Positions 2,876 through 58,967 of a stretch of 64,000 nucleotides of DNA are shown in pieces. The position numbers were made by a program, and so were the translations under genes. Numbering within the stretch: the first letter of the stretch is position 1; every line of letters begins with the position of its first letter. This DNA is from Escherichia phage PNJ-9. The stretch lies in sequence record PQ100635.1; one strand, 5' to 3'. The notes below the pieces were generated by a model. It made no database searches, was not told the DNA's origin, and worked only from the letters and a program-made list of their open reading frames with translations.

Positions 2876-2900
2876 GTAATCTAAATTCGAGGAAATTATT

Positions 2901-3857: not shown

Positions 3858-3869
3858 TTTCACCAAACT

Positions 3870-3904
3870 GTTTACAAGGTCTGTAGTTGTTGATACTATA
3901 GACC
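3870..3904 (+). promoter_or_regulatory. early-promoter-like cassette with inverted repeat
   Basis: GTTTAC, 18 bp, TACTAT; IR GGTCTGTAG/CTATAGACC. Confidence 0.45.
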
Positions 3905-3936
3905 TATCAAAACAAATGAGTGAATGGAGATACAAA

Positions 3937-4137
3937 ATGACTACTTTGAATAAACGTTTCGGTAAAGCTAAACCTGGCTGTGCAGCAGAACGTCGTTACA
4001 TTTTCGCTCAGTTAGAAGATGTAGAGTATCAGATTAATCAAGTTCACATTACTGGCATCGAGCCTATGTGTGGCCTTGAAGCTCTTCGTGAAGTTCGTGA
4101 CGGGTATCGTCGTGATATCGAAGAAATGTCAAAATAA
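3937..4137 (+). CDS. hypothetical small protein
   Basis: ORF track 3916-4137; ATG at 3937 has better spacing to GGAG. Confidence 0.5.
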   Translation: MTTLNKRFGKAKPGCAAERRYIFAQLEDVEYQINQVHITGIEPMCGLEALREVRDGYRRDIEEMSK

Positions 4138-4176
4138 GTGTACAAACTGATAGGGCTATGTTATAGTAGTCCTATT
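4138..4176 (+). promoter_or_regulatory. early-promoter-like cassette with inverted repeat
   Basis: GTGTAC, 18 bp, TATAGT; same GATAGGGCTA...TAGTCCTAT module as at 2589. Confidence 0.45.
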
Positions 4177-4195
4177 AAAACATGAGGAGAATATT

Positions 4196-4501
4196 ATGAA
4201 ATTAACAGAAACCAACCGAATTGGTCTTTTAACAATACTTGCATCACCTTTTTACGCAGCCCTTTCTGTTGCAGTATTACAAAAGGCTTACGATATGGAT
4301 GGTGTTCCTGGTTTTATATTCTTATCGCCGTTTTTGCTATTCGTTGGAGCATTGTTATTATATGCCACGACTGGTTTCGACCATAATGTCTGGGTCAATT
4401 ATAAATGTAAATTGTCTGAAGAAGAACACGCAGAAGCTCGTAAAAAAGCTATTGAATCTACCAATCTAGAAAATTTCATTAAAGAATGTCGAGGAAAATA
4501 A
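4196..4501 (+). CDS. small membrane protein, C-terminal ENFIKECR tail family
   Basis: TM helices; C-terminus STNLENFIKECRGK; GAGGAG upstream. Confidence 0.6.
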   Translation: MKLTETNRIGLLTILASPFYAALSVAVLQKAYDMDGVPGFIFLSPFLLFVGALLLYATTGFDHNVWVNYKCKLSEEEHAEARKKAIESTNLENFIKECRGK

Positions 4502-4502
4502 T

Positions 4503-5189
4503 ATGAATAGTTCTAAAGTGTTTAATAGTCAAGCTCGTGCAGTAGGTGGTTTTGCCGGCGGTATTTCTAATGATAAAATCAAGAACGAGCCTATGTTCTT
4601 CAACTGTAGTTTAGAATTTGCTTATAATAATGGCGGTCCTATTACTCGCTCTTTCATTATGAACTTGCCGGATGATTGGAACACCGACCAGGTTGTATTT
4701 GATTCACGAGTCCACATGCTGATGCCTGGTTGGTATCCTGCTATTCCTGGATATCACCATGATGACGTACCACGCCCAGATATTCCAACAGGACAACATT
4801 TTATTACTGCAGGACAACCTGATTATGACAACCCTCGTTACCATTCTGAACATATTCTTGGTCTTGTTAACGCTGATGTGTGTCCTACTCATTTTGCAAC
4901 AGGAACTGCAGAGTTCAGTCAGATTCCTGATGGCGAACTTATCTATCGCCAGTGGCACAAAGAAGTCCTCGAAAAAATCGAAAAAGGCGAACTAGAGAAA
5001 TGGGAAGCTCCGGACCGTACTCTTCTTCAGTTTGATTGGCAAACATGGCACACTGGTTCTCGTGCAATTAGTAATGGATGGCGGTGGTTCGGACGTGTAT
5101 CTCGTAATACAGACCGAGTTAAAAAGATTACCAATGAAATTCGTGTCAACGCCCAAGTTTATCTGGAATTCCCTATGGAAGGCTGGTAA
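4503..5189 (+). CDS. hypothetical protein (228 aa)
   Basis: ORF track; starts 2 nt after upstream stop. Confidence 0.6.
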   Translation: MNSSKVFNSQARAVGGFAGGISNDKIKNEPMFFNCSLEFAYNNGGPITRSFIMNLPDDWNTDQVVFDSRVHMLMPGWYPAIPGYHHDDVPRPDIPTGQHFITAGQPDYDNPRYHSEHILGLVNADVCPTHFATGTAEFSQIPDGELIYRQWHKEVLEKIEKGELEKWEAPDRTLLQFDWQTWHTGSRAISNGWRWFGRVSRNTDRVKKITNEIRVNAQVYLEFPMEGW

Positions 5190-5668
5190 TGATTAACAAT
5201 AATATAGACGATGGCAATGAAGGTATTTCATACTATTCAGTAGATTGGACAGGATGTCCATCCTACTTAGTGAAACATATTTGCCAAGAATTTAAAATCG
5301 ACCAGCCAGCAGGTATTATCGTGAACAGATACATTAATGGATATCAACCTATCGATGAAGTAATACGAACAACTCAAGCTGAGCTTGAAAAGTTTTTCAA
5401 TAAGTGCCAATGGATAACAGGATGGATTATATTTGTACCGTCAGTGTGGTTTTTTAGTACTAAGGTGAGTTCTTTCGGTTTTGTTGATATTATTGCTATC
5501 TTATTAGCATCTAGTATCATAAGTGTTGTTGGTGGCATCATTGGCGGCGGTACCGCCGCCATCATTATTAATCTTGTTAAAAGTAGTTTACAGGAACGTA
5601 AAGACAAGATAAAGGCCAAGAATAATGAAGTTGAACGTTTTATTACCGAATGCAGGAATTTGAGATGA
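5189..5668 (+). CDS. membrane protein, C-terminal ERFITECR tail family
   Basis: TAATG overlap; Gly-rich TM segment; C-terminus NNEVERFITECRNLR. Confidence 0.6.
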   Translation: MINNNIDDGNEGISYYSVDWTGCPSYLVKHICQEFKIDQPAGIIVNRYINGYQPIDEVIRTTQAELEKFFNKCQWITGWIIFVPSVWFFSTKVSSFGFVDIIAILLASSIISVVGGIIGGGTAAIIINLVKSSLQERKDKIKAKNNEVERFITECRNLR

Positions 5669-5901
5669 GTATAGCAATTTACATTAAATCGGAATCGTGT
5701 GATAGTTATCTGTACACATACGATAAAGATGTGTCAGAAGAAAAAATCAAAGACGACCTTAATATGGACCTTGATATGTTCCGTCCTATTGCAGATTACA
5801 AACTTGCGGTCTCTAATAGTGAAAGTCCATCTAAAGAAACGCGCATTGAAGAATTTATGTCCGAATTAATGGCCAAATCATGGGACCGAGATGATGAGTA
5901 A
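5665..5901 (+). CDS. hypothetical acidic protein
   Basis: ATGA overlap with upstream stop; ORF track 5650-5901. Confidence 0.5.
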   Translation: MSIAIYIKSESCDSYLYTYDKDVSEEKIKDDLNMDLDMFRPIADYKLAVSNSESPSKETRIEEFMSELMAKSWDRDDE

Positions 5902-6349
5902 GAAAAATAAAGTGAAAGAACTATCAGCAGGTATTATTTTCCTTACCGAAGATAAAGAATTATTCATGGGGCGTGTAACTGGTTCTCGTCCTAAAGGTGC
6001 ATTAGCTCATCGGTGGGATATTCCTAAAGGTCGTGTCGAGCCCGGTGAATCTCCTATCGAAGCCGCTATTCGTGAATGCGAAGAAGAAACTGGGTTTACA
6101 CAATATGACCCTGCCTTCCTGAAAGACCTAGGTGAACATCATTACTCAGACAATAAGAATATTCATCTGTTCCTATATACCATCCCTGTAGAGCACGAGC
6201 AATTCAGAAACAGTGTTTGTAATTCCTATCATACGTTCCCAGACGGACGACAGATTCCTGAATTTGATGCATTCGCTTTAATTAAACCTTCTCAGTGGGA
6301 ATATGTAATGGGCAAATCATTATATAAGGTGCTCACTACCATCCTATAA
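5891..6349 (+). CDS. nudE: Nudix hydrolase NudE
   Basis: Nudix box GRVEPGESPIEAAIRECEEETG; matches T4 NudE (e.1) position next to lysozyme. Confidence 0.9.
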   Translation: MMSKKNKVKELSAGIIFLTEDKELFMGRVTGSRPKGALAHRWDIPKGRVEPGESPIEAAIRECEEETGFTQYDPAFLKDLGEHHYSDNKNIHLFLYTIPVEHEQFRNSVCNSYHTFPDGRQIPEFDAFALIKPSQWEYVMGKSLYKVLTTIL

Positions 6350-6351
6350 GT

Positions 6352-6382
6352 AATAAATACCTCCTATAAACGTGGGAGGTAT
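6352..6382 (+). promoter_or_regulatory. RBS-sequestering hairpin with late-promoter-like TATAAA in loop, upstream of e
   Basis: ATACCTCC (6357-6364) pairs with GGAGGTAT (6375-6382) covering the SD; loop TATAAACG. Confidence 0.5.
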
Positions 6383-6383
6383 T

Positions 6384-6872
6384 ATGAATATATTTGAAAT
6401 GCTTCGTAATGACGAAGGTCTTAGACTGACTTTATACAAAGACACTGAAGGCTTTTGGACAATTGGCATAGGTCATTTAGTAACAAAGAACCCGTCTTTA
6501 GCTGTAGCTAAAGCTGAACTTGACAGAATGATCGGGCGTAAATGCAACGGTACAATTACCCTTGATGAGGCTGAAAAGTTATTTAATGAAGACGTTGATA
6601 AAGCTGTTCGCGGAATCTTGGGTAATGCTAAACTTAAACCGGTATATGATTCTTTAGATGCGGTTCGTCGATGTGCATTGGTCAATATGGTCTTCCAAAT
6701 GGGTGTAGCAGGCGTCGCTGGTTTTACTAATTCTCTTCGTATGCTTCAACAGAAACGTTGGGATGAAGCGGCAGTAAATCTAGCACAATCTAAATGGTAT
6801 CGTCAGACACCTAATCGCGCGAAACGCGTAATCTCAACATTTAAAACAGGAACTTGGAAAGCGTATATATGA
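6384..6872 (+). CDS. e: endolysin (T4 lysozyme)
   Basis: [31 protein letters not shown]... near-identical to T4 lysozyme incl. catalytic E11/D20/T26 region; GGGAGG SD. Confidence 0.95.
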
Positions 6873-8872: not shown

Positions 8873-9412
8873 ATGAGAACATTTTTAACTGGACCTTATC
8901 TATCCCTGATGAATGCTTTTACACACCATTCTGATGCTAGAGTAGAAGAAATTTGTAAGAACGGTTATGTCCCACCATTTGAAGACGTACTCAAGCAGTA
9001 CTGTACACTTCGTTTAGACGGTGGCAGACAATCAGGTAAATCGACCGCAGTAACTAATTTTGCTGCTAATTGGCTGTATGACGGTGGAACAGTTATTGTT
9101 CTTTCTAATACTTCAGCTTATGCTAAAATTTCTGCTGGCAACATTGAAAAAGAATTTTCTCGTTATTCTAGCGACGATATTCGATTCCGTTTATTTACTG
9201 ATTCTGTCCGTAGTTTTATTGGCAATGAAGGTTCTAAATTCCGTGGATTAACGCTTTCTCGTATTCTGTATATAATTGACGAGCCTATTAAAGCTCCTGA
9301 TATGGATAAGATTTACAACATACATATTAAAACAGTCCAACACTGTTGCAAAAGCAAATATTGCATCGGCGGTATTGCTCGTCCTCAATTTTTTGTGATT
9401 GGAATGCAATGA
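8873..9412 (+). CDS. hypothetical protein with Walker-A-like GGRQSGKST
   Basis: ORF track 8834-9412; ATG 8873 follows repeated GCCCCAAACCTTAAGAGAAA element. Confidence 0.5.
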   Translation: MRTFLTGPYLSLMNAFTHHSDARVEEICKNGYVPPFEDVLKQYCTLRLDGGRQSGKSTAVTNFAANWLYDGGTVIVLSNTSAYAKISAGNIEKEFSRYSSDDIRFRLFTDSVRSFIGNEGSKFRGLTLSRILYIIDEPIKAPDMDKIYNIHIKTVQHCCKSKYCIGGIARPQFFVIGMQ

Positions 9413-9717
9413 TGACCACTATTGAAGTTTTTGAGTATTGTTATAACAGCCCAGTATGCAATAAAAGGGCTCTTGTAGAAAATTACGAGATTTACCATTT
9501 TAAACCTAAACGATATCGTTTGACTAAAGGTCCGTTCGCAGGGCAGCAGGTTCTTTGTACTGCTCCTAATGCACGGTTGATGACTAGTATTCCGCATTTC
9601 AAAATGGAATTTACTGATGGGCCATTTAAGGGATTAATCACTCAAAGTTTAATGGCGTTTAATTCCGACCCATTTTTGATTAAAGAAAAATCTTGGATAA
9701 ATTTATTTTCTAATTGA
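9409..9717 (+). CDS. hypothetical protein
   Basis: ATGATGA overlap with upstream stop. Confidence 0.5.
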   Translation: MMTTIEVFEYCYNSPVCNKRALVENYEIYHFKPKRYRLTKGPFAGQQVLCTAPNARLMTSIPHFKMEFTDGPFKGLITQSLMAFNSDPFLIKEKSWINLFSN

Positions 9718-9723
9718 GGTTAT

Positions 9724-10086
9724 ATGAAAGCATATCAAATTCTTGAAGGTGAACATAAAGGCACTATTTATTTTGAAGACGGTACTCAAGCCCGGATTAT
9801 TGTCTCTAAGACTTTTAAAGAAGACGCTATTGTAGATCCAGAAATTTTCTACGGTTTGAATGCTCGTGAAATTGAAATTGAACATCAACCTAAAGTTAAA
9901 ATTGAAGGTGGTCAGCACCTGAACGTTAACGTTCTGCGTCGTGAAACTCTGGAAGATGCAGTTAAGCATCCGGAAAAATATCCGCAGCTGACCATCCGTG
10001 TATCCGGATATGCAGTTCGCTTTAACTCTCTGACTCCGGAACAGCAGCGCGACGTTATCGCTCGTACCTTTACTGAGAGTCTATAA
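9724..10086 (+). CDS. hypothetical protein
   Basis: ORF track; GAGG upstream. Confidence 0.6.
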
Positions 10087-10310
10087 TGGCTAAATTGATT
10101 ATAGAAGGGTCTGAAGATGTTTTAAAATGTTTTGCCGCCTGGTTTAGTTGCTCAGGCGAGCAATCATTCATTGAAGCATTTAGAATGGGTGATATTACTG
10201 GAAACTATCCGGCAACTGATATCACTGTACGTGGATATGGTATTAATGAGCCTATCCAATTGGTCGAATATGACCTTGCCACCGATGAGGAAATTCCTTA
10301 TGTCGATTGA
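10086..10310 (+). CDS. hypothetical protein
   Basis: TAATG overlap. Confidence 0.55.
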   Translation: MAKLIIEGSEDVLKCFAAWFSCSGEQSFIEAFRMGDITGNYPATDITVRGYGINEPIQLVEYDLATDEEIPYVD

Positions 10311-10545
10311 AGACATCAAAGGCTACAAGCCACATACCGATGATAAAATCAGTAAAGTGAACGCTATTAAAGACGCAGAAGTTCGTTTAGGACTTATTCT
10401 GGACGCCCTGGCAGAAGAAGCATTATCAGCAAATACTCCTGAAGCTCTGACGGCTTTGTCCCAATTGAACTGTGCTAAAGAACGCCTAAAGGAAGCTAGT
10501 ATGTGGGCTTGTCGTGCGGTATTTCGACCAGAGGAAAAATACTAA
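10300..10545 (+). CDS. hypothetical protein
   Basis: Internal ATG of ORF 10132-10545 overlapping upstream stop. Confidence 0.5.
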
Positions 10546-10844
10546 TGGCTCAAATCCTATCAGGCTTTGGAACTCATTATGAAGCATCTCGACGCATAAC
10601 TGAAAGCAATCCTTTTGGCCTTGTTCCGAAGCACAAGAAAATTCAAAGCCTTGATGACTTTGAGAATCGCCTATGGGCCCTCTTTAATGAGTACAAGGCA
10701 TATCTGAAAGAAGACGCTGACGATTGTCTTGAAGAAGATGAGATTGCGTATTACGAACAACGCCTTGAACAGCTCAAGAACTTCCACCAGGTTCGTGACG
10801 AAGTATCTAAAGCAGTTAAAAAGTTAATTCCTTTCAAAGAGTAG
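10545..10844 (+). CDS. hypothetical protein
   Basis: TAATG overlap; ORF track 10503-10844. Confidence 0.5.
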
Positions 10845-10894
10845 TTTACTTCTCCTCTAGTTGTGTTACTATAGACCTGTCAACTAGAGGAGAA
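10844..10894 (+). promoter_or_regulatory. early-promoter-like cassette; 14-bp inverted repeat includes regB SD
   Basis: GTTTAC, 17 bp, TACTAT; IR TTCTCCTCTAGTTG/CAACTAGAGGAGAA. Confidence 0.5.
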
Positions 10895-10901
10895 ATCAAA
10901 A

Positions 10902-11360
10902 ATGACTATCAATTCTGACGTTTTTATCCGCCGTAATAAACTCCGTCGAATCTTTGAAACGGAGTTCCGCAAAATAAATGCCGGTATAAAAGATGCTGCA
11001 AAGTCTCTTGGACTACCAGGCTTTCATATCAAGTATTCTCAACATCTCTTAGATCGTGCTATCCAGAGAGAAATAGATGAGAACTACGTTTTTGAATTAT
11101 TTCGTAAAGTAAAAAATCATGTTAAAGAAGTTGCAGAATTTTTATCAATGCCGGCACGTCCAGATGTTGATGAAGATTTTGTCGAAGGTGTCGAATATCG
11201 CCCAGGCCGTTTAGAAATAACTGATGGAAATCTTTGGTTAGGACTTACAGTTTGTCGCGAAAATCCAGCATTCAAAATGAAGACTCTTCAATGCAGAATG
11301 GCTATTATTAACAATAAACGACTACCAGGAAAAGCTTCTAAAGCAGTGATTAAAATCTAG
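10902..11360 (+). CDS. regB: endoribonuclease RegB
   Basis: MTINSDVFIRRNKLRR...SQHLLDRAIQREIDE...RPGRLEITDGNLWLG matches T4 RegB along whole length. Confidence 0.93.
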   Translation: MTINSDVFIRRNKLRRIFETEFRKINAGIKDAAKSLGLPGFHIKYSQHLLDRAIQREIDENYVFELFRKVKNHVKEVAEFLSMPARPDVDEDFVEGVEYRPGRLEITDGNLWLGLTVCRENPAFKMKTLQCRMAIINNKRLPGKASKAVIKI

Positions 11361-11368
11361 AGGTAAAC

Positions 11369-11911
11369 ATGAGAAAAGCACTACTCGCTGGTCTATTTGC
11401 TCTTTCATTATCAGCACATAGCTCCGAGCATACTTTTAGTAATGTCCAACTCGATAACTTGAATTATGCTTATCAGTTTGGGGAACAGTTTTCTAAGGAT
11501 GGAAAATTTAAAACGCATGAAAATATGCATAAGAAAGGACTTGGATACATAATGGCCGCAATACTATGGCAGGAATCATCTGCCGGTATTAATCTTAAAG
11601 ATAAGAAAGGTCACCATGCGTATGGAATGTTCCAAAACTATCTACCAACAATGAGGGCAAGAATTAACCAGCTTGGTTATAATATGACTGATGCCCAAAT
11701 TAAGAAAATGCTATCTAAGCGGTCTAATTCAACCAGATGGGCTTATATCGAATTTTCTTATTGGTTAAATATACATAACGGGGATATAAGAAAAGCTATA
11801 TCCTCATATAATGCGGGATGGAAGACAAGTGCTGGAAGTAAATATGCTTCTGAAGTCCTAGAAAAGGCTAATTACCTTAAATCAAATAAACTACTGGAAA
11901 TAAAAGAATGA
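11369..11911 (+). CDS. secreted lytic-transglycosylase-like (SLT-domain) protein
   Basis: Signal peptide MRKALLAGLFALSLSA; SLT-like motif WQESSAG...AYGMFQ. Confidence 0.6.
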   Translation: MRKALLAGLFALSLSAHSSEHTFSNVQLDNLNYAYQFGEQFSKDGKFKTHENMHKKGLGYIMAAILWQESSAGINLKDKKGHHAYGMFQNYLPTMRARINQLGYNMTDAQIKKMLSKRSNSTRWAYIEFSYWLNIHNGDIRKAISSYNAGWKTSAGSKYASEVLEKANYLKSNKLLEIKE

Positions 11912-12255
11912 CCAAAGTGTTGGCTTTAATAGTTGGCTTGGTTTCATTTAACGCTCTTGCTAATACTACATATACTGATGTAACGGAGTATACAAATAGA
12001 ACGGCGTCTGATTATTGTGGTAAAAGTCAAGAGTGTAAAGTAGATTTTTCACAAAAATTGTTATATGCGTATAAAGACGGAGAAAAAGATGGGGCGTCTA
12101 GTAGGTTCAAGGCGTCTACCTTAATTAAAAGATACTATAAAAAATGGCAAATATTAGAATGCTCGGTGGCGGAACCTAAAGATAAGGCAGCATGCAATTC
12201 TATGGTGGACCGTCTAGTTGACTCTTATAATAGAGGACTTGCAGCAAGTGATTAA
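11908..12255 (+). CDS. secreted/periplasmic hypothetical protein
   Basis: Signal peptide MTKVLALIVGLVSFNALA; ATGA overlap. Confidence 0.6.
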   Translation: MTKVLALIVGLVSFNALANTTYTDVTEYTNRTASDYCGKSQECKVDFSQKLLYAYKDGEKDGASSRFKASTLIKRYYKKWQILECSVAEPKDKAACNSMVDRLVDSYNRGLAASD

Positions 12256-41067: not shown

Positions 41068-43779
41068 ATGAAAGAATTTTACTTAACGGTTGAACAGATT
41101 GGTGATTCAATTTTTGAACGTTACATCGATTCTAACGGCCGTGAACGTACTCGTGAAGTAGAATATAAACCATCACTGTTTGCTCATTGTCCAGAAAGTC
41201 AGGCCACGAAATATTTTGATATCTATGGTAAGCCGTGCACTCGTAAGTTGTTCGCTAATATGCGTGATGCCTCCCAATGGATTAAACGCATGGAAGATAT
41301 CGGACTTGAAGCACTTGGCATGGACGATTTCAAATTGGCGTATTTGTCTGACACTTATAACTATGAAATCAAATACGACCATACAAAAATTCGTGTGGCT
41401 AACTTCGACATCGAAGTAACATCTCCGGACGGGTTCCCTGAGCCGTCACAAGCAAAACATCCGATTGATGCTATCACCCATTATGACTCAATTGATGACA
41501 GGTTTTATGTATTTGACCTTTTGAATTCTCCATATGGTAATGTAGAAGAATGGTCTATTGAAATCGCTGCTAAGCTTCAAGAACAAGGCGGTGATGAAGT
41601 TCCATCCGAAATTATCGATAAAATCATTTATATGCCGTTCGATAACGAAAAAGAATTGTTGATGGAATATCTCAACTTCTGGCAGCAGAAAACTCCTGTC
41701 ATTTTGACTGGATGGAACGTTGAGTCATTTGATATTCCATATGTGTATAACCGAATCAAGAATATTTTTGGCGAATCTACTGCGAAACGTTTATCACCAC
41801 ATCGCAAGACTCGTGTTAAAGTTATCGAAAACATGTATGGTTCTCGTGAAATCATTACATTGTTCGGTATCTCTGTTCTTGATTACATTGACCTTTACAA
41901 AAAATTCTCTTTTACCAATCAACCATCGTATTCTCTGGATTATATTTCAGAATTTGAATTGAACGTTGGTAAACTGAAATATGACGGCCCTATTTCTAAG
42001 CTTCGTGAAAGCAATCATCAACGATATATTTCTTATAACATCATCGACGTATATCGGGTATTGCAAATTGATGCTAAACGTCAGTTCATCAACTTGAGTT
42101 TAGACATGGGTTATTATGCTAAGATACAGATTCAATCTGTGTTTAGCCCAATTAAAACATGGGATGCTATTATTTTTAATAGCCTTAAAGAGCAGAACAA
42201 GGTGATTCCACAAGGTCGTTCTCATCCGGTTCAACCTTATCCCGGCGCTTTTGTTAAGGAACCTATTCCAAATCGATACAAATATGTAATGAGTTTCGAC
42301 CTTACATCTCTGTATCCAAGTATTATTCGCCAAGTGAATATTAGCCCAGAAACAATAGCAGGAACGTTTAAAGTAGCTCCATTGCATGATTATATTAACG
42401 CTGTTGCTGAACGTCCTTCTGATGTGTACAGTTGTTCTCCTAACGGCATGATGTATTATAAAGACCGTGACGGTGTTGTTCCAACTGAAATCACTAAAGT
42501 CTTTAATCAACGTAAAGAACATAAAGGTTACATGCTTGCAGCTCAACGTAACGGTGAAATAATTAAAGAGGCATTGCATAATCCTAATCTTTCTGTTGAT
42601 GAACCATTAGATGTTGATTATCGTTTCGACTTCAGTGATGAGATTAAAGAAAAGATTAAAAAGTTGTCTGCTAAATCTCTTAATGAAATGTTGTTTAGAG
42701 CTCAACGTACTGAAGTTGCAGGTATGACTGCCCAAATTAACCGTAAATTGCTTATCAACTCACTTTATGGTGCGCTTGGCAACGTTTGGTTCCGTTATTA
42801 TGATTTGCGTAATGCTACTGCAATCACAACATTTGGTCAAATGGCTTTACAGTGGATTGAACGTAAAGTTAATGAATATCTGAATGAAGTTTGTGGTACA
42901 GAAGGTGAAGCTTTCGTTCTTTATGGTGATACAGACTCTATTTACGTATCTGCTGATAAAATTATCGATAAGGTTGGTGAATCTAAATTCCGTGATACCA
43001 ACCATTGGGTAGACTTCTTAGATAAGTTTGCACGTGAACGTATGGAACCAGCTATTGATAGGGGTTTCCGTGAAATGTGTGAATACATGAACAATAAACA
43101 ACACTTAATGTTCATGGACCGAGAAGCTATCGCTGGGCCTCCACTCGGTTCTAAAGGTATTGGTGGATTCTGGACTGGTAAGAAACGTTATGCATTAAAC
43201 GTGTGGGATATGGAAGGTACTCGTTACGCTGAGCCTAAACTCAAAATTATGGGTCTAGAGACTCAGAAATCTTCGACTCCTAAAGCAGTACAGAAAGCTC
43301 TTAAAGAATGTATTCGTCGTATGCTTCAAGAAGGTGAAGAATCATTACAAGAATATTTTAAAGAGTTTGAAAAAGAATTCCGTCAATTGAATTATATTAG
43401 CATCGCGTCGGTATCTTCTGCGAATAACATTGCTAAATATGATGTAGGTGGATTCCCTGGTCCCAAATGCCCGTTCCATATTCGTGGAATTCTGACGTAT
43501 AACCGGGCTATCAAAGGTAATATCGATGCACCGCAAGTTGTAGAAGGTGAAAAAGTATATGTTCTGCCTTTACGTGAAGGAAACCCATTCGGTGATAAAT
43601 GTATCGCATGGCCTTCTGGTACTGAAATCACAGATTTAATTAAAGACGACGTACTTCATTGGATGGACTACACTGTTCTCCTTGAGAAGACATTTATTAA
43701 ACCACTTGAAGGATTCACATCAGCAGCGAAACTCGATTACGAGAAGAAAGCATCTCTTTTCGATATGTTCGATTTTTGA
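41068..43779 (+). CDS. 43: DNA polymerase gp43 (family B)
   Basis: 903 aa; exo motifs FDIE, YNIIDV; pol motifs DxxSLYPS, YGDTDS. Confidence 0.96.
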   Translation: MKEFYLTVEQIGDSIFERYIDSNGRERTREVEYKPSLFAHCPESQATKYFDIYGKPCTRKLFANMRDASQWIKRMEDIGLEALGMDDFKLAYLSDTYNYEIKYDHTKIRVANFDIEVTSPDGFPEPSQAKHPIDAITHYDSIDDRFYVFDLLNSPYGNVEEWSIEIAAKLQEQGGDEVPSEIIDKIIYMPFDNEKELLMEYLNFWQQKTPVILTGWNVESFDIPYVYNRIKNIFGESTAKRLSPHRKTRVKVIENMYGSREIITLFGISVLDYIDLYKKFSFTNQPSYSLDYISEFELNVGKLKYDGPISKLRESNHQRYISYNIIDVYRVLQIDAKRQFINLSLDMGYYAKIQIQSVFSPIKTWDAIIFNSLKEQNKVIPQGRSHPVQPYPGAFVKEPIPNRYKYVMSFDLTSLYPSIIRQVNISPETIAGTFKVAPLHDYINAVAERPSDVYSCSPNGMMYYKDRDGVVPTEITKVFNQRKEHKGYMLAAQRNGEIIKEALHNPNLSVDEPLDVDYRFDFSDEIKEKIKKLSAKSLNEMLFRAQRTEVAGMTAQINRKLLINSLYGALGNVWFRYYDLRNATAITTFGQMALQWIERKVNEYLNEVCGTEGEAFVLYGDTDSIYVSADKIIDKVGESKFRDTNHWVDFLDKFARERMEPAIDRGFREMCEYMNNKQHLMFMDREAIAGPPLGSKGIGGFWTGKKRYALNVWDMEGTRYAEPKLKIMGLETQKSSTPKAVQKALKECIRRMLQEGEESLQEYFKEFEKEFRQLNYISIASVSSANNIAKYDVGGFPGPKCPFHIRGILTYNRAIKGNIDAPQVVEGEKVYVLPLREGNPFGDKCIAWPSGTEITDLIKDDVLHWMDYTVLLEKTFIKPLEGFTSAAKLDYEKKASLFDMFDF

Positions 43780-43819: not shown

Positions 43820-44455
43820 ATGAAAACTACTCCTATTACTATCGCTATTGACGCAATCATAAAACAATCTTCTTCTTTGGCCGCTATGGCCAAAGTAATT
43901 AGTCAAAACCCTGCTCGTTATAATGCTATTCTAGAAACTCTTCGACGCCCGGGACTTAGTAATTATGAAAGCCGAGTAATTATTACAGGTGTTGGTAAGA
44001 ATGCTAATATTGCAACTAAAGCTTCTGAGACATTTGCTTCACTCGGTATCCCGAGTATGTACTTGAACACTGGGCATTATTCTCACGGTGATGCAGGATT
44101 CATTGCGCCTAATGATGTGTTGATTCATATTAGTCGTTCTGGTAAAACTGAAGAAATGATAGGCGTGGCTAAGCATCTTAAAATGATTCGTCCGAACGTC
44201 AAACAGATTCTGTTGCATTGTAACCCAGACATTCCACAAGAATACGAAGCTCTTTTTGATTATACGTTCTGTACAGGCATCGCAGTAGAGGTTGATGAGA
44301 ATTCTCTGGCTCCGACCATGTCCACTACATTGTTGTTAGCGCTTATCGATACGTTTGCTATCAACCTTTCGTCTGAACGTGGATTTACCTCTAATGACTT
44401 CCTTAAGTTCCACCCTGGCGGTGCACTAGGTGCCATGTTACGAGGCGAACAATGA
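43820..44455 (+). CDS. SIS-domain sugar-phosphate isomerase (KdsD/GmhA-like; arabinose-5-phosphate isomerase candidate)
   Basis: GVGKNANIATKASETFASLGIPS...HGDAGFI...DVLIHISRSGKTEE follows KdsD-type SIS pattern; single SIS domain, 211 aa. Confidence 0.7.
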   Translation: MKTTPITIAIDAIIKQSSSLAAMAKVISQNPARYNAILETLRRPGLSNYESRVIITGVGKNANIATKASETFASLGIPSMYLNTGHYSHGDAGFIAPNDVLIHISRSGKTEEMIGVAKHLKMIRPNVKQILLHCNPDIPQEYEALFDYTFCTGIAVEVDENSLAPTMSTTLLLALIDTFAINLSSERGFTSNDFLKFHPGGALGAMLRGEQ

Positions 44456-44595
44456 AAGCAATAACAATAGGACTTTTACTATTGATGCTTGTCATGACTA
44501 TCTACTGGAGCTTAACGGCTCCAGTAATGATTCCGACTCTTATAATCGGATGGATTATGATTGGACTACAAGCAAAGTATGAATGCTTTAACTAG
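44452..44595 (+). CDS. small membrane peptide (47 aa), not on ORF track
   Basis: ATGA overlap with SIS gene stop; hydrophobic. Confidence 0.4.
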   Translation: MKAITIGLLLLMLVMTIYWSLTAPVMIPTLIIGWIMIGLQAKYECFN

Positions 44596-44636: not shown

Positions 44637-46325
44637 ATGAAAAAAGCTGTTATTCTTGGTGCTGGACTGGCAACTCGTTTGTATCCAATAACGCATCATA
44701 TTCCTAAGGTGCTTGTTAACTATAAACAAGACACTATTCTGAGCAATTTGTATACAATTTATTCTGACCTTGGCGCAGATGAAATTATTGTAGTAGTTCA
44801 TTCAAAATTTGCTGAAACTGTTCGAGCTTATTGTGAGCAAGAAGGGTTCAATGTGACTATTCGTACAGTTGATGAAGCGTATGGTTCTGCTTATGCTCTT
44901 GCTAAATTGCACAAAGATTTAGACGGCCATAATGTAATTGTTAACTGGTGTGATATTATTCCTGATTTTGGTTCGTGGTCTTGGAATGTTAACGCAATCT
45001 ATGTTAAGGGTGACGAATGTCGATATAATTTCGACGGTGAAAATATCACTAATGTAGGTTCAACAGGTGGTAATGTTGTAGGAATTTATCAGTTCAAAGA
45101 CTGGGAATTCTATATGGGTTCTACTGATGAGGAAATTCATGAATACTGCAAAGGACGTGATTTCGTAGAATTCCTTTACGGCAGCGCATTCAATAAATCA
45201 GAGCTTATGAATATCATCGACCTTGGTGATATGCCTAAACTTGAAAAAGCTCATGAAGTTCGTGAACTTAATCGTAGTTTTAATGCAGTTGAAATTGGCG
45301 AAGAAACGGTAACAAAGATTGCTTTAACAGAACAGGGCGTTGCACTTCAAAAAGATGAAGTCAATTGGTATAAGAAAGTTAAATCAGATTCAGTTCCACG
45401 GATTGTAAGTTATCATCCTGGCGGCCACTTTATTATGGAACGTATTAAAGGTAAGCCAGCATTTGAATATATTAAATCCAAATCAAGTCTTGCTCGTCCA
45501 CAAATTGTTGATGCAATTTTAGATGCACTGAAATTCAGCACAGACACTTATTTTGTAAGTCCTGAAACTGTTCGTCGTGATTTCACTAAAGAATTCTATA
45601 CTAAAGTTATTGATCGTTGTGAAAGTATTCAACCATTGATTGATTCATTTGGTAAAATCACACATGTGAACTACACTAAGATTGGGCGTCTGAAGCCAAT
45701 GTTGAAACAAGCTTTAGAACACCTTATTCGTTATCATAACCGTTCTCAGGGACAGTACTCTGTTATTCATGGTGACCCGAACTTCAGTAATACTATGATT
45801 ACTGATAATGGTGAAGTCAAGTTTATCGACCCTCGTGGATATTTTGGTGAAACCAAGATTTATGGGCCAAAATTGTATGATGAAGCTAAAGTGCTTTACG
45901 CTGTTTCAGGTTATGATGAATTCAACGCTAATCCGACTTGGGGACAGTTTACTATTGATGAAACAACTTGTAATGTGACTATTAACATCAATCCGTTAGT
46001 TTACAAATATGGAAAGATGAGTTCGTTTAATGAGTATCATCATTTGGCTGTAGCAATTATCTGGATTGCATTAGGTGGTTATTTCAAGAATAATCCACTT
46101 AAAGCGGTAGCCGCATATTATAAAGGTATGGAACTTCTGACTAAGCAATTACGTAATATGGGCCGTGTACTTCAAGACGGCTCTATTAGTTATGATGTAG
46201 CAGAACCTGTAACGGCTACTCTGATTACAAAAAATCCTGGTAAATGGGTACTAACTGATAAAGAAACTGGTGTTTCTTATCGTCCAATCGGTGGCGATAT
46301 CACTCATCAATGGGAACGAATCTAA
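44637..46325 (+). CDS. bifunctional sugar-1-phosphate nucleotidyltransferase / APH-type kinase
   Basis: N-terminal NTase motif ILGAGLATRLYP; C-terminal kinase motifs IHGDPNFSN and FIDPRG (Brenner motif). Confidence 0.7.
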   Translation: MKKAVILGAGLATRLYPITHHIPKVLVNYKQDTILSNLYTIYSDLGADEIIVVVHSKFAETVRAYCEQEGFNVTIRTVDEAYGSAYALAKLHKDLDGHNVIVNWCDIIPDFGSWSWNVNAIYVKGDECRYNFDGENITNVGSTGGNVVGIYQFKDWEFYMGSTDEEIHEYCKGRDFVEFLYGSAFNKSELMNIIDLGDMPKLEKAHEVRELNRSFNAVEIGEETVTKIALTEQGVALQKDEVNWYKKVKSDSVPRIVSYHPGGHFIMERIKGKPAFEYIKSKSSLARPQIVDAILDALKFSTDTYFVSPETVRRDFTKEFYTKVIDRCESIQPLIDSFGKITHVNYTKIGRLKPMLKQALEHLIRYHNRSQGQYSVIHGDPNFSNTMITDNGEVKFIDPRGYFGETKIYGPKLYDEAKVLYAVSGYDEFNANPTWGQFTIDETTCNVTININPLVYKYGKMSSFNEYHHLAVAIIWIALGGYFKNNPLKAVAAYYKGMELLTKQLRNMGRVLQDGSISYDVAEPVTATLITKNPGKWVLTDKETGVSYRPIGGDITHQWERI

Positions 46326-46711
46326 TGCACCGTGTAAAAAACATGCTTAATCTTTGTTTTGATGTCGATGATTGCATCACGGAATGGAATAACAATCGTG
46401 ATTACGTGAACTTCAAACCAGACGTCGAAATGGTGTCTGCCATTAATGCCCTATATGATGCAGGGCATACAATAACGCTTTACACTGCTCGCGGTATGAA
46501 GTCAGTCGGTCCTGGTCGTATAGCAATTGACATTCTCCCAAGTCTGATTCAGAACTTGGCAAACATTGGATTGAAGTACCATAATTTGCTAACACATAAA
46601 CCAGTATATGATTGGATTATCGACGACAAAGCTATGCGTCCTGACGAATTCAAAGCTCTTATGAATAAAGGCGAATTCGAAACATTTAAATCATATAAAC
46701 CGAATCTATAA
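46325..46711 (+). CDS. HAD-superfamily phosphatase
   Basis: HAD motif I FDVDDCIT near N-terminus, motif IV WIIDDK; TAATG overlap. Confidence 0.65.
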   Translation: MHRVKNMLNLCFDVDDCITEWNNNRDYVNFKPDVEMVSAINALYDAGHTITLYTARGMKSVGPGRIAIDILPSLIQNLANIGLKYHNLLTHKPVYDWIIDDKAMRPDEFKALMNKGEFETFKSYKPNL

Positions 46712-46765: not shown

Positions 46766-47926
46766 ATGAATACCTTTAAAATCGGAACGAATTTTGATTT
46801 AGCTCTTCTTGATAAAATCGTAGAGCTCAATAAAACTTATCCTAATAGCTTGATAAACGAAGTATACGGCTCTACCAGAGAAATGGCTTTTGTAGCAGCC
46901 AGACCTGATTTTAGGCTTCCTGACGTTGACAAAAAGATGTTAGAAGATTACGTTAAACGTTGTAACGAATTAGGTATTTGCTTTAACTATACACTCAACA
47001 CGATAAATCCTGGTTCAAAAAGAGAACTAGTTGAGTGGAAGAAGAAAGCTATTCAGGATTATGTTCAGTATCTTTGGTCAATAGGCGTATGGCGTATTAC
47101 TATCGCTAACCCTGTTGTTATGGAAATTGTTCGTGAAGTCAATAAAGACATTGAGATTGAAGTTTCAACAATTCTACATGTCGATGCTGTAACTCAAATC
47201 AAATACTTGCATGACCAATATAATATCAAAAAGGTCTGCTGTGGAATTCATAAGAACCGTTCAGTTTCTTTCCTGAAGCGTGCAGCAGAGTTTTGTAATA
47301 AGAACAATATAATATTTGAAGTTCTTGTAAATGAGTTCTGTTCTAATGCTGGTAAAGGGTATACAACACATTGTAGCTATCGTGACTCTTGCTATATTTT
47401 CCATAGCACCGATGTTACAGTAGATGATGCTAAATCCTTAAACGGATATCCAATGCAGCACTGTATTAAAGCTCGTGATACAGACCCATTTAACTGGTTG
47501 AGAACTCGTTTTGTTCGTCCTCAAGATTTGAAACTTTATAATGATATTGGTATCACTCAATTCAAAGTTTCAGGACGTACAGGTAGCACAGACTACATTT
47601 TGAAAGTTCTTGAAGCTTATGCTTCCGAAAAATTTGAAGGTAATTTGTTGGAATTGTGGAAGCCTTTAGAGACCATTTTCACTCTTGAAAATGAGACCGA
47701 GTTTTCACATACGGTAAATATTGAAACCTCTTTGTTAGATGGCTTTTTAGAAAAAAGGTGGTTCAGACATCCAGATTTCGATTGTGCTAATGAAATCTGC
47801 GGGACGACGTGTACATATTGTGAAAGATATTATAAACGTCAATTATCTAAAAACGGGTTAGCAGAAAACTCTATATCTATTATTGATATAACTAACTCTG
47901 ATGACGCTTTGAGGTACCCGGAATGA
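46766..47926 (+). CDS. Cys-rich protein of unknown function (candidate metal/Fe-S enzyme)
   Basis: 386 aa; C-terminal CANEICGTTCTYC (Cx4Cx3Cx2C) plus Cys pairs; no family assigned. Confidence 0.6.
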   Translation: MNTFKIGTNFDLALLDKIVELNKTYPNSLINEVYGSTREMAFVAARPDFRLPDVDKKMLEDYVKRCNELGICFNYTLNTINPGSKRELVEWKKKAIQDYVQYLWSIGVWRITIANPVVMEIVREVNKDIEIEVSTILHVDAVTQIKYLHDQYNIKKVCCGIHKNRSVSFLKRAAEFCNKNNIIFEVLVNEFCSNAGKGYTTHCSYRDSCYIFHSTDVTVDDAKSLNGYPMQHCIKARDTDPFNWLRTRFVRPQDLKLYNDIGITQFKVSGRTGSTDYILKVLEAYASEKFEGNLLELWKPLETIFTLENETEFSHTVNIETSLLDGFLEKRWFRHPDFDCANEICGTTCTYCERYYKRQLSKNGLAENSISIIDITNSDDALRYPE

Positions 47927-48066
47927 TTTCTAGAAAAACTTTTAACCACCAACTTAACGAAGAGATTTTGACTATGAAAATTAACAGCAACGAACAAATT
48001 CTTAAAAAGGCCCTGATGGGCCTTTTTAAAACTAAAGCGGCTAAAGTGATTAAAGAACCTGTTTAA
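47923..48066 (+). CDS. possible small ORF (47 aa), not on ORF track
   Basis: ATGA overlap with upstream stop; contains a terminator-like hairpin, so may be non-coding. Confidence 0.25.
   Translation: MISRKTFNHQLNEEILTMKINSNEQILKKALMGLFKTKAAKVIKEPV
48009..48027 (+). terminator. terminator-like hairpin in 47927-48204 gap
   Basis: GGCCC-TGAT-GGGCC flanked by A-run and T-run. Confidence 0.45.
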
Positions 48067-48160
48067 TTGGAATACTACGCTGATGCATTTCTTCATAGTG
48101 TTCTTGGAAGTATCGATGCTGAAGCTTTACGTTATATCAACATTGTCAAGAAATTCAAAT

Positions 48161-48185
48161 AAGCTTTACGAATTGAGTATATAAT
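48161..48185 (+). promoter_or_regulatory. middle-promoter-like element upstream of 42-like gene
   Basis: AAGCTTTA, 11 bp, TATAAT. Confidence 0.45.
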
Positions 48186-48204
48186 AAATTGTATTGAGGT
48201 AAAC

Positions 48205-48921
48205 ATGGGAAAACATAACACAATGAAATATATCAAAGCCGCAGATTTTCAAACCGCATTTAAAGCAGTCAATCGTGAAATTTTAGAAAACCCGGAATTC
48301 GTAACTGATTCTCGTATTGGACGTTGTAATGAAATTGGGTCTATGACAGTAGTTGTTGATACCCCTTCATCATTCAAAATGACCGACCCACGTATTAACC
48401 GCATCTCTTATGAATATGCCGAAGACTTCTGGAAATTTATGATTTCTGGTGGTACTGATGCAGAAGAAGCATTTAAGGCATATCCTAATGTCGCTAAATT
48501 TATTTCTAAACCAAAATCAGATGCTTTGCCTGCGAACTTCAACACTTTCTATGGTCCTCGCATTGCGGCCCAATTACCAACTCTTCTAAAAGAACTTAAA
48601 GAGAAACCTAACTCTCGAAGAGTTGTGTTCCAAATTCTAGAAAGTTCTGATCAGGCTTTGCTTGATTCGGATGAAACGCTTGAATATCCATGTACTGACT
48701 CAGTGACTTATTATATTCGTGATGGTAAGCTTTATACCCACTGTCATATGCGTTCTCAGAACTGTGCTGTTGTTATGCAGTTGGATTTTTATCTCCAAGG
48801 AAAATTACTTCATTATATCGCTAACGAATGTGGTGTAGAAGTTGGTGATTATACTCATACCATGGTAAGTGCCCATGTGTTTGAACGTGATTTTGATTAT
48901 GTTAAAGGATTCCTTGACTAA
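48205..48921 (+). CDS. 42: thymidylate-synthase-fold pyrimidine hydroxymethylase (divergent gp42-like)
   Basis: PNSRRVVFQI, catalytic-Cys segment PCTDSVTYYIRD, MRSQN...DFY align to T4 gp42; much more divergent than neighbours. Confidence 0.65.
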   Translation: MGKHNTMKYIKAADFQTAFKAVNREILENPEFVTDSRIGRCNEIGSMTVVVDTPSSFKMTDPRINRISYEYAEDFWKFMISGGTDAEEAFKAYPNVAKFISKPKSDALPANFNTFYGPRIAAQLPTLLKELKEKPNSRRVVFQILESSDQALLDSDETLEYPCTDSVTYYIRDGKLYTHCHMRSQNCAVVMQLDFYLQGKLLHYIANECGVEVGDYTHTMVSAHVFERDFDYVKGFLD

Positions 48922-49820
48922 TGGCTATTTTCCGCGTACCTATCTTGAGTATGCGGTCTTATGAAACTGGTCAGTATGCTATCCTTAAGGATGGCAACTT
49001 CCAACTTCATTTGCACCGTGCTAATCCAGGTGATGTAATTACATATCCACGTAATGCATCTGATATTAAAGAATGTGAACGTCTTTTCCCAGAATTTAAG
49101 TTTGTTCCATTATGGTATAAAGATAACGCATATAACACTCGTAAATATTTCTGGTCTGAAAATGAATTTGTGGTTGATTCATTAATTGCTTATTATGATT
49201 GTGATTTTCTAATCACAGATATCACTGGATATGACGGCGCTTTTGATGTGGAATTCAATTTCAATATCACTGCAGACCCTAATAAACCACGTTTTTATAT
49301 TGACGAATTCTTAAAAACCGATATGTTGTCGGTTAATCGTTCACTTCAAACTACTGTGTTGAATAAACGTCAAAAGGAAGTGCTGGTTAACGCTGGTGCC
49401 GATGGTAATAAGATTATCGTAACCCAGAAAGTTATACGTCCTTCCATCATGCAGCGTCTTGTAGGTGATTTGGCTCCTATTCATCTAGATGGTATTTTTC
49501 ATCCATTTCGAATTAGTGACCCGTGCTATCGTTTTGAACAAGTGGTTGAATGTGCAATTCAATTAGGTCAACCGCTTTATATAACCGATCCAAATAATAG
49601 CTTCGACAGAAATAAGTATCCTGAAGAAGCGCTGATTCGAATTTTTAAACCAACTAAAACTGAGTACTATCAAATTCTTAAAGGACGTCCGAAGATTCAA
49701 TATTTCGAAAATCCTGAAGAAGTATTTCATCCAGGTCTTGGCGAGTTCATCTACTTTAACGCTTTAATTTCTTCGCCGTATAATATACCTAAATATGAAG
49801 ATGTTGTAATCGAGGAATAA
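48921..49820 (+). CDS. hypothetical protein at beta-gt locus (candidate DNA sugar transferase)
   Basis: 299 aa; TAATG overlap with 42-like; no similarity to T4 beta-gt noted. Confidence 0.55.
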   Translation: MAIFRVPILSMRSYETGQYAILKDGNFQLHLHRANPGDVITYPRNASDIKECERLFPEFKFVPLWYKDNAYNTRKYFWSENEFVVDSLIAYYDCDFLITDITGYDGAFDVEFNFNITADPNKPRFYIDEFLKTDMLSVNRSLQTTVLNKRQKEVLVNAGADGNKIIVTQKVIRPSIMQRLVGDLAPIHLDGIFHPFRISDPCYRFEQVVECAIQLGQPLYITDPNNSFDRNKYPEEALIRIFKPTKTEYYQILKGRPKIQYFENPEEVFHPGLGEFIYFNALISSPYNIPKYEDVVIEE

Positions 49821-49821
49821 A

Positions 49822-50370
49822 ATGGCTAAAATTATTTTAGTAGATGGCCCGGATAATGCTGGTAAAACAACTTTCATTAATGACATAATGGAAATTAGTG
49901 AAAGATATGTAAAGATTGATTTCCCTAAACGAACAGTTGATGGACGTTTCGATGTTAAGTCTCGAAATGAAGTTGGCTGTTTCGAAACGATGTTGAATTA
50001 TTTAGACCCTACTAAGATTTATCTGTTAGACCGTGGATATATTAGTAACTGGGTTTATGGACGTATTCGACAAGATGCGGACTCGGTTCTTGACGTTTAT
50101 GAACAGGATTATGTTCGTCTTTGCCAAAACCATGATGTGTTCACAATTATTTTAACACGTAACGAAATGACTGAAAGTTTTGAAGACGACCTTATTACTT
50201 TGTCTTCGTTCGGTTTTAATACAGTCATTTCATATTTTGAAGAGTTTGCAATTCATAACGAAATCCAAACGTATCAATTACTTAATCATGATGGTGCTAA
50301 CAAAGTTATAGGATTTAATGCAAGCGAACGTAATAATTTGATTACAGAAATTATCAAATGGGCTCGTTAA
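49822..50370 (+). CDS. thymidylate-kinase-like P-loop nucleotide kinase
   Basis: P-loop VDGPDNAGKTT and DRGY (DRY-like) motif. Confidence 0.6.
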   Translation: MAKIILVDGPDNAGKTTFINDIMEISERYVKIDFPKRTVDGRFDVKSRNEVGCFETMLNYLDPTKIYLLDRGYISNWVYGRIRQDADSVLDVYEQDYVRLCQNHDVFTIILTRNEMTESFEDDLITLSSFGFNTVISYFEEFAIHNEIQTYQLLNHDGANKVIGFNASERNNLITEIIKWAR

Positions 50371-58355: not shown

Positions 58356-58445
58356 AATATCTCCTTAGTTACCTTATTATTTATTACGCTTTATAAAATT
58401 AATGTTAGAATTAACTTCTCTTATACTGAATTGAAAGGAAAAATA

Positions 58446-58967
58446 ATGGCACACTTTAACGAATGTTCACAACTTATTTCTGGTGTTGATAAAGCAGAAG
58501 AAGCTTATTTTAATGCTCTGATTCACGAAGATAAAGACCCTCTGCAGGTAATGCTTGATATGCAGAAATCTTTACAGGTTCGTCTGGCAAATGACAAGCC
58601 TGAACATAACAAACATCCTGATGAATTGGCTACTGCTGGTGATGTTGTTGATTGGCTGCGTAATCAGAAAGATTATATTGATGATGAATTCCGTGAACTG
58701 CTGACTTCACTTGGTGGTATGAGCAATGGTGAAAAAGCCGCTAGCTCTGTATGGAAGCCGTGGAAGGCACAACATGCTGAATATCGAAATCGTCGTATCG
58801 ATGAACTGTCTCCTGAAGACCAGCTTGAAATTAAATTTGAAATGATTGATATTCTGCATTTCGTTCTAAATATGTTCCAAGGTCTAGGACTTTCTGCTGA
58901 AGAAATCTTCAAACTGTATTACCTGAAAAACCAACACAACTTTGAACGCCAGGATAATGGTTACTAA
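58446..58967 (+). CDS. 56: dCTP pyrophosphatase gp56
   Basis: MAHFNECSQLISGVDKAEEAYFNALIHEDKDPLQVMLDMQ matches T4 gp56. Confidence 0.93.
   Translation: MAHFNECSQLISGVDKAEEAYFNALIHEDKDPLQVMLDMQKSLQVRLANDKPEHNKHPDELATAGDVVDWLRNQKDYIDDEFRELLTSLGGMSNGEKAASSVWKPWKAQHAEYRNRRIDELSPEDQLEIKFEMIDILHFVLNMFQGLGLSAEEIFKLYYLKNQHNFERQDNGY

Follow-up and report, generated by a model that had tools for sequence, protein, structure and literature searches.

The 64,000-nucleotide stretch of Escherichia phage PNJ-9 analyzed here (PQ100635.1; hereafter the window) encodes three proteins at 48205-50370 in the places held by gene 42, the beta-glucosyltransferase gene (beta-gt) and segA, respectively, on the T4 map, and the question raised by this locus is what modification of the phage DNA they make. 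A first-pass annotation had read them as a divergent deoxycytidine monophosphate (dCMP) hydroxymethylase, a protein with no recognizable resemblance to beta-gt and a thymidylate kinase-like enzyme, acting together in base hydroxymethylation, phosphorylation of the modified nucleotide, and sugar transfer. Our analysis indicated that the three genes very probably form the core of the pathway by which Mosigvirus (RB69-type) phages substitute arabinosylated 5-hydroxycytosine for cytosine. The open reading frames (ORFs) were as first described, abutting and on the plus strand:

48205..48921, plus strand: 238-amino-acid ORF, thymidylate synthase (TS)-superfamily enzyme (RB69 gp48 equivalent; PF00303, 57 bits)
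48921..49820, plus strand: 299-amino-acid ORF, predicted compact GT-B glycosyltransferase, proposed first (alpha) arabinosyltransferase (RB69 gp46:47 equivalent)
49822..50370, plus strand: 182-amino-acid ORF, thymidylate kinase (Tmk)-like P-loop nucleotide kinase (RB69 gp45 equivalent)

The first two ORFs overlap by one base and one base lies between the second and the third, so the three look like a single translationally coupled unit.

A three-way alignment of the 238-residue protein with E. coli ThyA and T4 gp42 fixed the equivalent residues in the active site. Cys163 corresponded to C146 of ThyA and C148 of gp42, Asp194 to N177 and D179, Glu160 to L143 and D145, and Asn186 to D169 and D171; in the region of the RSxD motif the window protein reads MRSQN, T4 MRSND, and E. 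coli QRSCD. Identity to T4 gp42 was 25%, with the cysteine segment and the MRS...D segment in register as the first-pass annotation had them. The contrast that it drew between this divergent protein and the neighboring replication proteins was also found, as was the exchange of a module relative to T4, but the neighbors are not near-identical to their T4 counterparts (UvsX 68%, gp41 86%). At the position of T4 Asp179, which it had singled out for checking, Asp194 points to dCMP rather than deoxyuridine monophosphate as the substrate, and the Asn that an ordinary TS would have there is absent.

The four residues together make up the signature of the 5-hydroxy-dCMP synthases: Asn at ThyA Asp169, the catalytic Cys, Asp at N177, and an acidic residue at L143. 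This signature was well conserved. Among 44 distinct homologs encoded beside the glycosyltransferase family in viral contigs (34-99% identical to the window protein), E143, C146, and D177 (ThyA numbering) were found in every one and N169 in 43, the remaining homolog having Ser. All NCBIfam TS scores were far under the curated cut-offs; the best model gave 69 bits where its cut-off is 174.55.

The chemistry associated with these residues is known from close relatives. In DNA of RB69 and of Acinetobacter phage DLP3, 5-hydroxycytosine carries one arabinose or several, and nuclear magnetic resonance and mass spectrometry place the ether bond of the sugar directly on C5 (Lee et al., Nucleic Acids Res 2026, PMC13326640). 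When RB69 gp48 was expressed in E. coli, the product was 5-hydroxydeoxycytidine (5hodC, 243 Da) and not 5-hydroxymethyldeoxycytidine; 18O from 18O2 entered this product, and flavin mononucleotide co-purified with the enzyme (PMC13326640). The same authors identified D169N as diagnostic, and 5hodC was made by each of nine diverse homologs with this change (PMC13326640). A crystal structure of the homologous enzyme of phage HY126 with flavin is attributed to He et al. (Nat Chem Biol 2026) as cited in PMC13326640, and a flavin cofactor with a C5 hydroxyl derived from O2 is reported for that enzyme too. The window protein was identical to RB69 gp48 at 237 of 238 positions, and to PDB entries 9iqc, 9ir2, and 9iqu at 234 of 238 (98%, four substitutions; expectation value (E) 1.6e-161 for 9iqc). 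Because it has Asn at ThyA position 169 together with the equivalents of Cys146, Asp177, and Glu143, the 238-residue protein is predicted to be a flavin- and O2-dependent 5-hydroxy-dCMP synthase, neither an ordinary TS nor a hydroxymethylase.

The 299-residue protein is encoded at the beta-gt place and, as the first-pass annotation had noted, no sequence similarity to beta-gt was detected. Searches of Pfam, NCBIfam, and PDB sequences gave no match, including to Glycos_transf_1-type families, and the sole family match was to phrog_3891, for which the function is not known. The AlphaFold2 model, made with 57 homologs, had a mean predicted local distance difference test score (pLDDT) of 95.4 and a predicted template modeling score (pTM) of 0.90, and its two Rossmann-like domains match solved GT-B enzymes along most of the chain; BshA, PimA, and WaaG were named alongside the model. 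On the basis of this model the protein can confidently be called a compact GT-B glycosyltransferase, in keeping with the sugar transfer first suggested for the locus. RB69 gp46:47 and DLP3 gp79 are the proteins proposed to transfer arabinofuranose from uridine diphosphate (UDP)-arabinofuranose to 5-hydroxycytosine (PMC13326640). A GT4-type EX7E motif was also considered: E/D263 and E/D275 flank an invariant HPG, but the spacing is wrong and no claim is made for it.

The DNA of this gene is 99% identical to RB69 ORF046 plus ORF047. Compared with the window, the RB69 record (NC_004928) contains an additional T at alignment column 545, which splits the glycosyltransferase gene in two, while the window keeps an unsplit 299-amino-acid ORF. 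This agrees with the published explanation that the gp46:47 split in RB69 is a sequencing error (PMC13326640).

The 182-residue protein differed from RB69 gp45 at only two positions (180 of 182 identical). The thymidylate kinase likeness proposed for it at first was upheld as far as the Tmk fold, the P-loop, the DR(Y/H) motif, and a match to phrog_761 (thymidylate kinase) are concerned, but not at curated thresholds: there was no Pfam match (PF02223), and TIGR00041 gave 15.6 bits against a cut-off of 83.25. In 40 family members, down to 22% identity, the P-loop, FPK(R), D70-R71, S75-N76..Y79, R113, and D122-D123 were invariant. Comparison of the family profile with PDB sequences returned weak Tmk matches (E 0.006-0.07, covering the N-terminal 40 residues only) and spurious matches to the RecA P-loop, and base-recognition residues were therefore not inferred. 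The RB69 equivalent has been named only a nucleotide kinase (PMC13326640).

Neighbors within 6 kb were counted for 38 distinct TS homologs of the 238-residue family that had at least 4 kb of flanking sequence on both sides. The Tmk-like kinase was the most constant neighbor of the synthase family (36 of the 38 loci), followed by the 299-residue glycosyltransferase family (31), the nucleotidyltransferase/kinase (27), the phosphatase (24), the isomerase (21), and the U32 protein (14). The kinase gene stayed in the cluster despite rearranged gene order, and also in distant contigs with another gene in the glycosyltransferase slot. Since it is retained through such rearrangements and replacements, the Tmk-like kinase is a core component of the pathway. 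The simplest reading, and a plausible one from the sequences, is that the 182-residue protein is a dedicated 5-hydroxy-dCMP kinase, so that a kinase for the modified deoxynucleoside monophosphate (dNMP) would indeed be present, as the first-pass annotation had proposed.

Taken together, the proposed pathway would run as follows. With its catalytic Cys, a loosely bound flavin, and O2, the 238-residue enzyme would add a hydroxyl to C5 of dCMP, without any folate one-carbon transfer, giving 5-hydroxy-dCMP; this is the chemistry demonstrated for RB69 gp48, which is one residue removed from the window protein (PMC13326640). The Tmk-like kinase would then convert 5-hydroxy-dCMP to the diphosphate, a step that a dNMP kinase of the T4 gp1 type, whose gene is at another place in the genome, can also carry out, after which host nucleoside diphosphate kinase would form the triphosphate and the phage polymerase would incorporate it. 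Finally, judging by fold, synteny, and the published proposal, the GT-B enzyme would place the first arabinofuranose on the 5-hydroxyl. The donor would be UDP-arabinofuranose made by the isomerase, kinase/uridylyltransferase, and phosphatase encoded upstream, and a second arabinose would come from a second transferase encoded elsewhere.

Several points weigh against this pathway as it is drawn. The window's own proteins have been read from sequence, with their activities taken from relatives. Phosphorylation of 5-hydroxy-dCMP to 5-hydroxy-dCDP in vitro was shown with the gp1 homolog gp159, not with gp45; the first arabinosyl transfer was not reconstituted; individual DLP3 transferases were inactive on DNA containing 5-hydroxycytosine; and the authors cannot tell whether the first sugar joins the mononucleotide or the DNA (all PMC13326640). 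Furthermore, the Thanatos homolog TH1_063, whose relative in Thanatos-2 is about 47% identical to the 299-residue protein, was reported to make UDP-xylose, with no transfer to DNA, dCMP, or deoxycytidine triphosphate (dCTP).

Two other identities could be given to the 238-residue protein. If it were a divergent dCMP hydroxymethylase, then the kinase would act on hydroxymethyl-dCMP and the 299-residue protein would glycosylate hydroxymethylcytosine, which is how the locus was first interpreted. The TS fold, Cys163, Asp194, and the acidic residue at the L143 position are exactly as in T4 gp42, RB69 DNA was initially reported to contain arabinosyl-hydroxymethylcytosine (the 2018 paper PMC6024577), and many GenBank records carry the dCMP hydroxymethylase label. 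Nevertheless, this reading is highly improbable, and the hydroxymethylation step of the first-pass annotation has to be given up: Asn186 replaces an Asp conserved in both E. coli and T4, RB69 gp48 makes 5-hydroxy-dCMP with flavin and an oxygen drawn from O2 (PMC13326640), the ether link goes straight to C5, and a second, independent paper has called the 2018 arabosyl-hydroxymethylcytosine assignment for RB69 erroneous. That the protein is an ordinary TS is barely conceivable. Pfam and NCBIfam TS models do match it and many records are labeled thyA, but the NCBIfam scores are far under the curated cut-offs, Asp rather than Asn occupies the specificity position, Glu stands for Leu143 and Asn for Asp169, and the published product is 5-hydroxy-dCMP (PMC13326640).

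The glycosyltransferase admits two further readings, one of which would change the order of the pathway. If arabinosylation preceded replication, the 299-residue protein would act on 5-hydroxy-dCMP and the polymerase would incorporate glycosylated dCTP, and the Tmk-like kinase would exist because arabinosyl-5-hydroxy-dCMP is too bulky for the gp1-type and host kinases. The glycosyltransferase and kinase genes abut or overlap at most loci, and the Straboviridae retain the kinase although gp1 homologs phosphorylate 5-hydroxy-dCMP; the inactivity of single transferases on 5-hydroxycytosine DNA and the acceptor left open for the first sugar (PMC13326640) also fit. We consider this order unlikely, because the arabinoses that follow the first are attached to DNA in vitro (PMC13326640), the Thanatos protein TH1_063 gave no product on dCMP or dCTP, and the kinase gene is apart from the glycosyltransferase gene, beside that of the phosphatase, in loci L006-8, L012-16, and L026-27. 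To our knowledge, the characterized phage DNA glycosylations, such as those by T4 alpha-gt and beta-gt, all act on DNA. The conversion of uridine triphosphate and xylose-1-phosphate to UDP-xylose in vitro that is credited to TH1_063 raises the other possibility, that the 299-residue protein is a UDP-pentose pyrophosphorylase rather than a base transferase. This was judged very unlikely, given the transferase fold and the presence in the cluster of a separate nucleotidyltransferase gene; the HY126 homolog of that nucleotidyltransferase produces UDP-arabinose (PMC13326640).

The genes around the trio were then compared with those of related phages. The trio is located between the DNA polymerase gene (41068-43779) and uvsX, with genes 40 and 41 further downstream. 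An isomerase, a 562-amino-acid nucleotidyltransferase/kinase fusion, a phosphatase, a U32 protein, and a short ORF are encoded between the polymerase and the trio, and a likely source of dCMP is encoded at a distance:

43820..44455, plus strand: SIS-domain arabinose-5-phosphate isomerase (RB69 gp55 equivalent; Pfam SIS, phrog_5670, NCBIfam KpsF/GutQ and KdsD)
44637..46325, plus strand: bifunctional sugar kinase/nucleotidyltransferase (HY126 AfhE-like; RB69 gp52:53 equivalent)
46310..46711, plus strand: HAD-like phosphatase (HY126 AfhF-like; RB69 gp51 equivalent; phrog_1238, TIGR01689 capsule biosynthesis phosphatase)
46766..47926, plus strand: U32-family putative iron-sulfur (Fe-S) protein (RB69 gp50 equivalent; PF01136, 42 bits against a cut-off of 22.4)
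47923..48066, plus strand: small RB69 ORF049c-like ORF, shortened by a stop codon (phrog_8601)
58431..58967, plus strand: gene-56-like dCTP pyrophosphatase, which would supply dCMP (phrog_173, NTP pyrophosphohydrolase)

In the fusion protein the N-terminus matched NTP_transferase, the C-terminus had weak matches to kinase families, and NCBIfam uridylyltransferase models were also matched. RB69 gp55, gp52:53, and gp51 jointly convert ribulose-5-phosphate to UDP-arabinofuranose, and RB69 gp28 is listed as the dCTPase in Table 1 of the same paper (PMC13326640). The trio and the upstream island constitute a DNA-modification cassette, as the first-pass annotation had recognized. One clade of E. coli phages (L012-L016 and L021, for example IME281 and NC-G) has kept the TS homolog, glycosyltransferase, kinase, nucleotidyltransferase/kinase, and phosphatase and has neither the isomerase nor U32; these phages presumably rely on host KdsD/GutQ for arabinose-5-phosphate.

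The window is from a Mosigvirus (RB69-like). A 6.6-kb region matched about 150 Mosigvirus genomes at 97-98.5% identity, among them HY126, ST0, JS09, and the O157 typing phages, and the best DNA match was vB_EcoM-ZQ3 (98.5%).

Smaller features of the region were also noted. Scanning of 43.5-50.7 kb for sigma-70 promoters and terminators gave no enrichment over shuffled sequence. Upstream of the start of the TS homolog (48161-48199) there is AAGCTTTA, then 11 nucleotides, TATAAT, and GAGG 5 nucleotides before the ATG, an array resembling a T4-type MotA-dependent middle promoter followed by a Shine-Dalgarno sequence. The ORF049c-like ORF (47923-48204 in the window) has TAA at RB69 Gln48, leaving 47 amino acids compared to 79 in RB69; the translation reads ...KEPV* and the remainder is still in frame with the RB69 sequence, so the stop could be either a genuine nonsense mutation or an artifact of sequencing. 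A hydrophobic 47-amino-acid ORF at 44452-44595 (phrog_3610) overlaps the end of the isomerase gene; its homolog is called a second phosphosugar isomerase in one GenBank record, which looks like annotation spill-over.

The U32 protein does not have an evident place in this pathway. The published sugar pathway is complete without it, and its RB69 equivalent, gp50, was labeled a sugar or heterocycle reductase with no mention of U32, prephenate, or chorismate (PMC13326640). Alignment with hhalign to a profile of E. coli UbiU, RlhA, and TrhP gave a probability of 91.6% (E 8e-7), while alignment of the phage profile to single E. coli sequences was not significant (probability at most 5%). Cys203, Cys209, and Cys233 align with UbiU Cys169, Cys176, and Cys193, but the fourth ligand and the spacing differ. 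Ten Cys were invariant across 19 homologs. At the C-terminus (residues 340-352), outside the canonical U32 cysteine motif, there is an invariant CX4CX3CX2C formed by C340, C345, C349, and C352, the last three of which make up CxxxCxYC, a pattern typical of radical S-adenosylmethionine cluster sites.

In E. coli, RlhA is needed for 5-hydroxycytidine 2501 of 23S ribosomal RNA and TrhP for 5-hydroxyuridine in transfer RNA. These two systems and UbiU/UbiV work without O2, and for each of them prephenate is either a requirement or the demonstrated source of the oxygen. A possible link to prephenate was also found among the phages. In 13 of the 18 U32 loci of a first scan, an ORF of about 80 amino acids directly between the U32 and TS genes scored 36-50 bits with the Pfam model for chorismate mutase, the prephenate-forming enzyme, and so passed the model's cut-off of 27. 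The observation concerns loci L005, L006, L008-L011, L017-L019, L022, L023, L026, L027, and L056, and no chorismate mutase ORF was found in any locus lacking U32. RB69 ORF049c and its shortened copy in the window were considered for the same role and did not match chorismate mutase models. Chorismate mutase is encoded by another small ORF, found in other genera and not in Mosigvirus, and therefore the window has no chorismate mutase gene.

U32 occurs in phages of enterobacteria and Shewanella, and Acinetobacter, a strict aerobe, was not among the ten commonest host genera of the U32 matches, while 57 Acinetobacter phage records carry the glycosyltransferase. Moreover, three incomplete metagenomic contigs, from a phage type unlike T4 and with an adjoining gene for a DnaE-type polymerase, encode a dCTPase-like pyrophosphohydrolase, the Tmk-like kinase, the glycosyltransferase, and U32 in one block:

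L050 (IMGVR_UViG_3300035520_000516): 8946-12051
L051 (3300045988_171426): 2685-6865
L055 (3300045988_181920): 9113-11973

Neither the 15-20 kb available for these contigs nor a scan for TS-family patterns revealed a TS homolog, and U32 takes the place of the TS-like hydroxylase. On the strength of the chorismate mutase linkage, the host distribution, the contigs lacking TS, and the completeness of the sugar pathway without U32, we tentatively suggest that the U32 protein may be a second cytosine C5-hydroxylase, O2-independent and prephenate-dependent, for use in anoxic hosts, although we remain inclined to doubt it. The correlation with aerobic and anaerobic hosts is imperfect, and the L012-L016, L021 clade of E. 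coli phages is without U32. The idea is not mentioned in the accessible literature, a coverage to which He et al. 2026 and Mahler et al. 2025 do not belong. By analogy, a cassette with two hydroxylases may parallel the dual TrhO and TrhP routes to 5-hydroxyuridine, and RlhA for 5-hydroxycytidine, in E. coli.

The system itself is already known, from publications of 2025-2026 on proteins 98-100% identical to those of the window, and the finding is mainly a correction of an enzyme mislabeled in databases and in the 2018 literature as dCMP hydroxymethylase or thymidylate synthase. The enzyme belongs to a flavin-dependent, cytosine-hydroxylating branch of the TS superfamily that has been recognized only recently. 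This matters because DNA containing arabinosyl-5-hydroxycytosine determines the resistance of common therapeutic-candidate coliphages to restriction and clustered regularly interspaced short palindromic repeats (CRISPR) systems, as well as their recognition by type IV systems. Of further interest are the near-universal presence of the Tmk-like kinase beside the synthase and the U32/chorismate mutase pair as a possible anaerobic route; if the latter were true, the prephenate-dependent hydroxylation known for RNA and quinones would reach DNA precursors as well.

Comparison with characterized systems places each component. The phage U32 protein matches the Pfam U32 domain of E. coli RlhA, TrhP, UbiU, and UbiV, and three of its cysteines align with Fe-S cysteines, but it scores far under the NCBIfam equivalog cut-offs, spaces its cysteines differently, and has the additional C-terminal CX4CX3CX2C. 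The thymidylate kinases of vaccinia (2v54) and S. aureus (4dwj) are longer than the 182-residue kinase, which travels with 5-hydroxy-dCMP synthase genes and not with genes for thymidylate synthesis; for the T4 gp1-type dNMP kinase (RB69 gp159), conversion of 5-hydroxy-dCMP to the diphosphate was shown, whereas for the 182-residue kinase the function is inferred. The T4 alpha- and beta-glucosyltransferases are about 50-100 residues longer than the 299-residue protein, for which the proposed donor is UDP-arabinofuranose and the proposed acceptor a hydroxyl on the ring (PMC13326640). T4 gp42 shares with the 238-residue protein the TS fold, the catalytic Cys, Asp at the pyrimidine-specificity position, the acidic residue at L143, dCMP as substrate, and a genomic slot beside a DNA glycosyltransferase gene, but the window protein has Asn rather than Asp at 169 and Val rather than Gly at 173, and the published chemistry of gp42 (methylenetetrahydrofolate, transferring a hydroxymethyl group) differs from that of RB69 gp48 (flavin and O2, adding a hydroxyl). 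The RB69 gp48 and HY126 enzymes, from different Mosigvirus isolates, have the same active-site signature (E143, C146, N169, D177), genomic position, and neighbors as the window protein and differ from it by one to four conservative substitutions.

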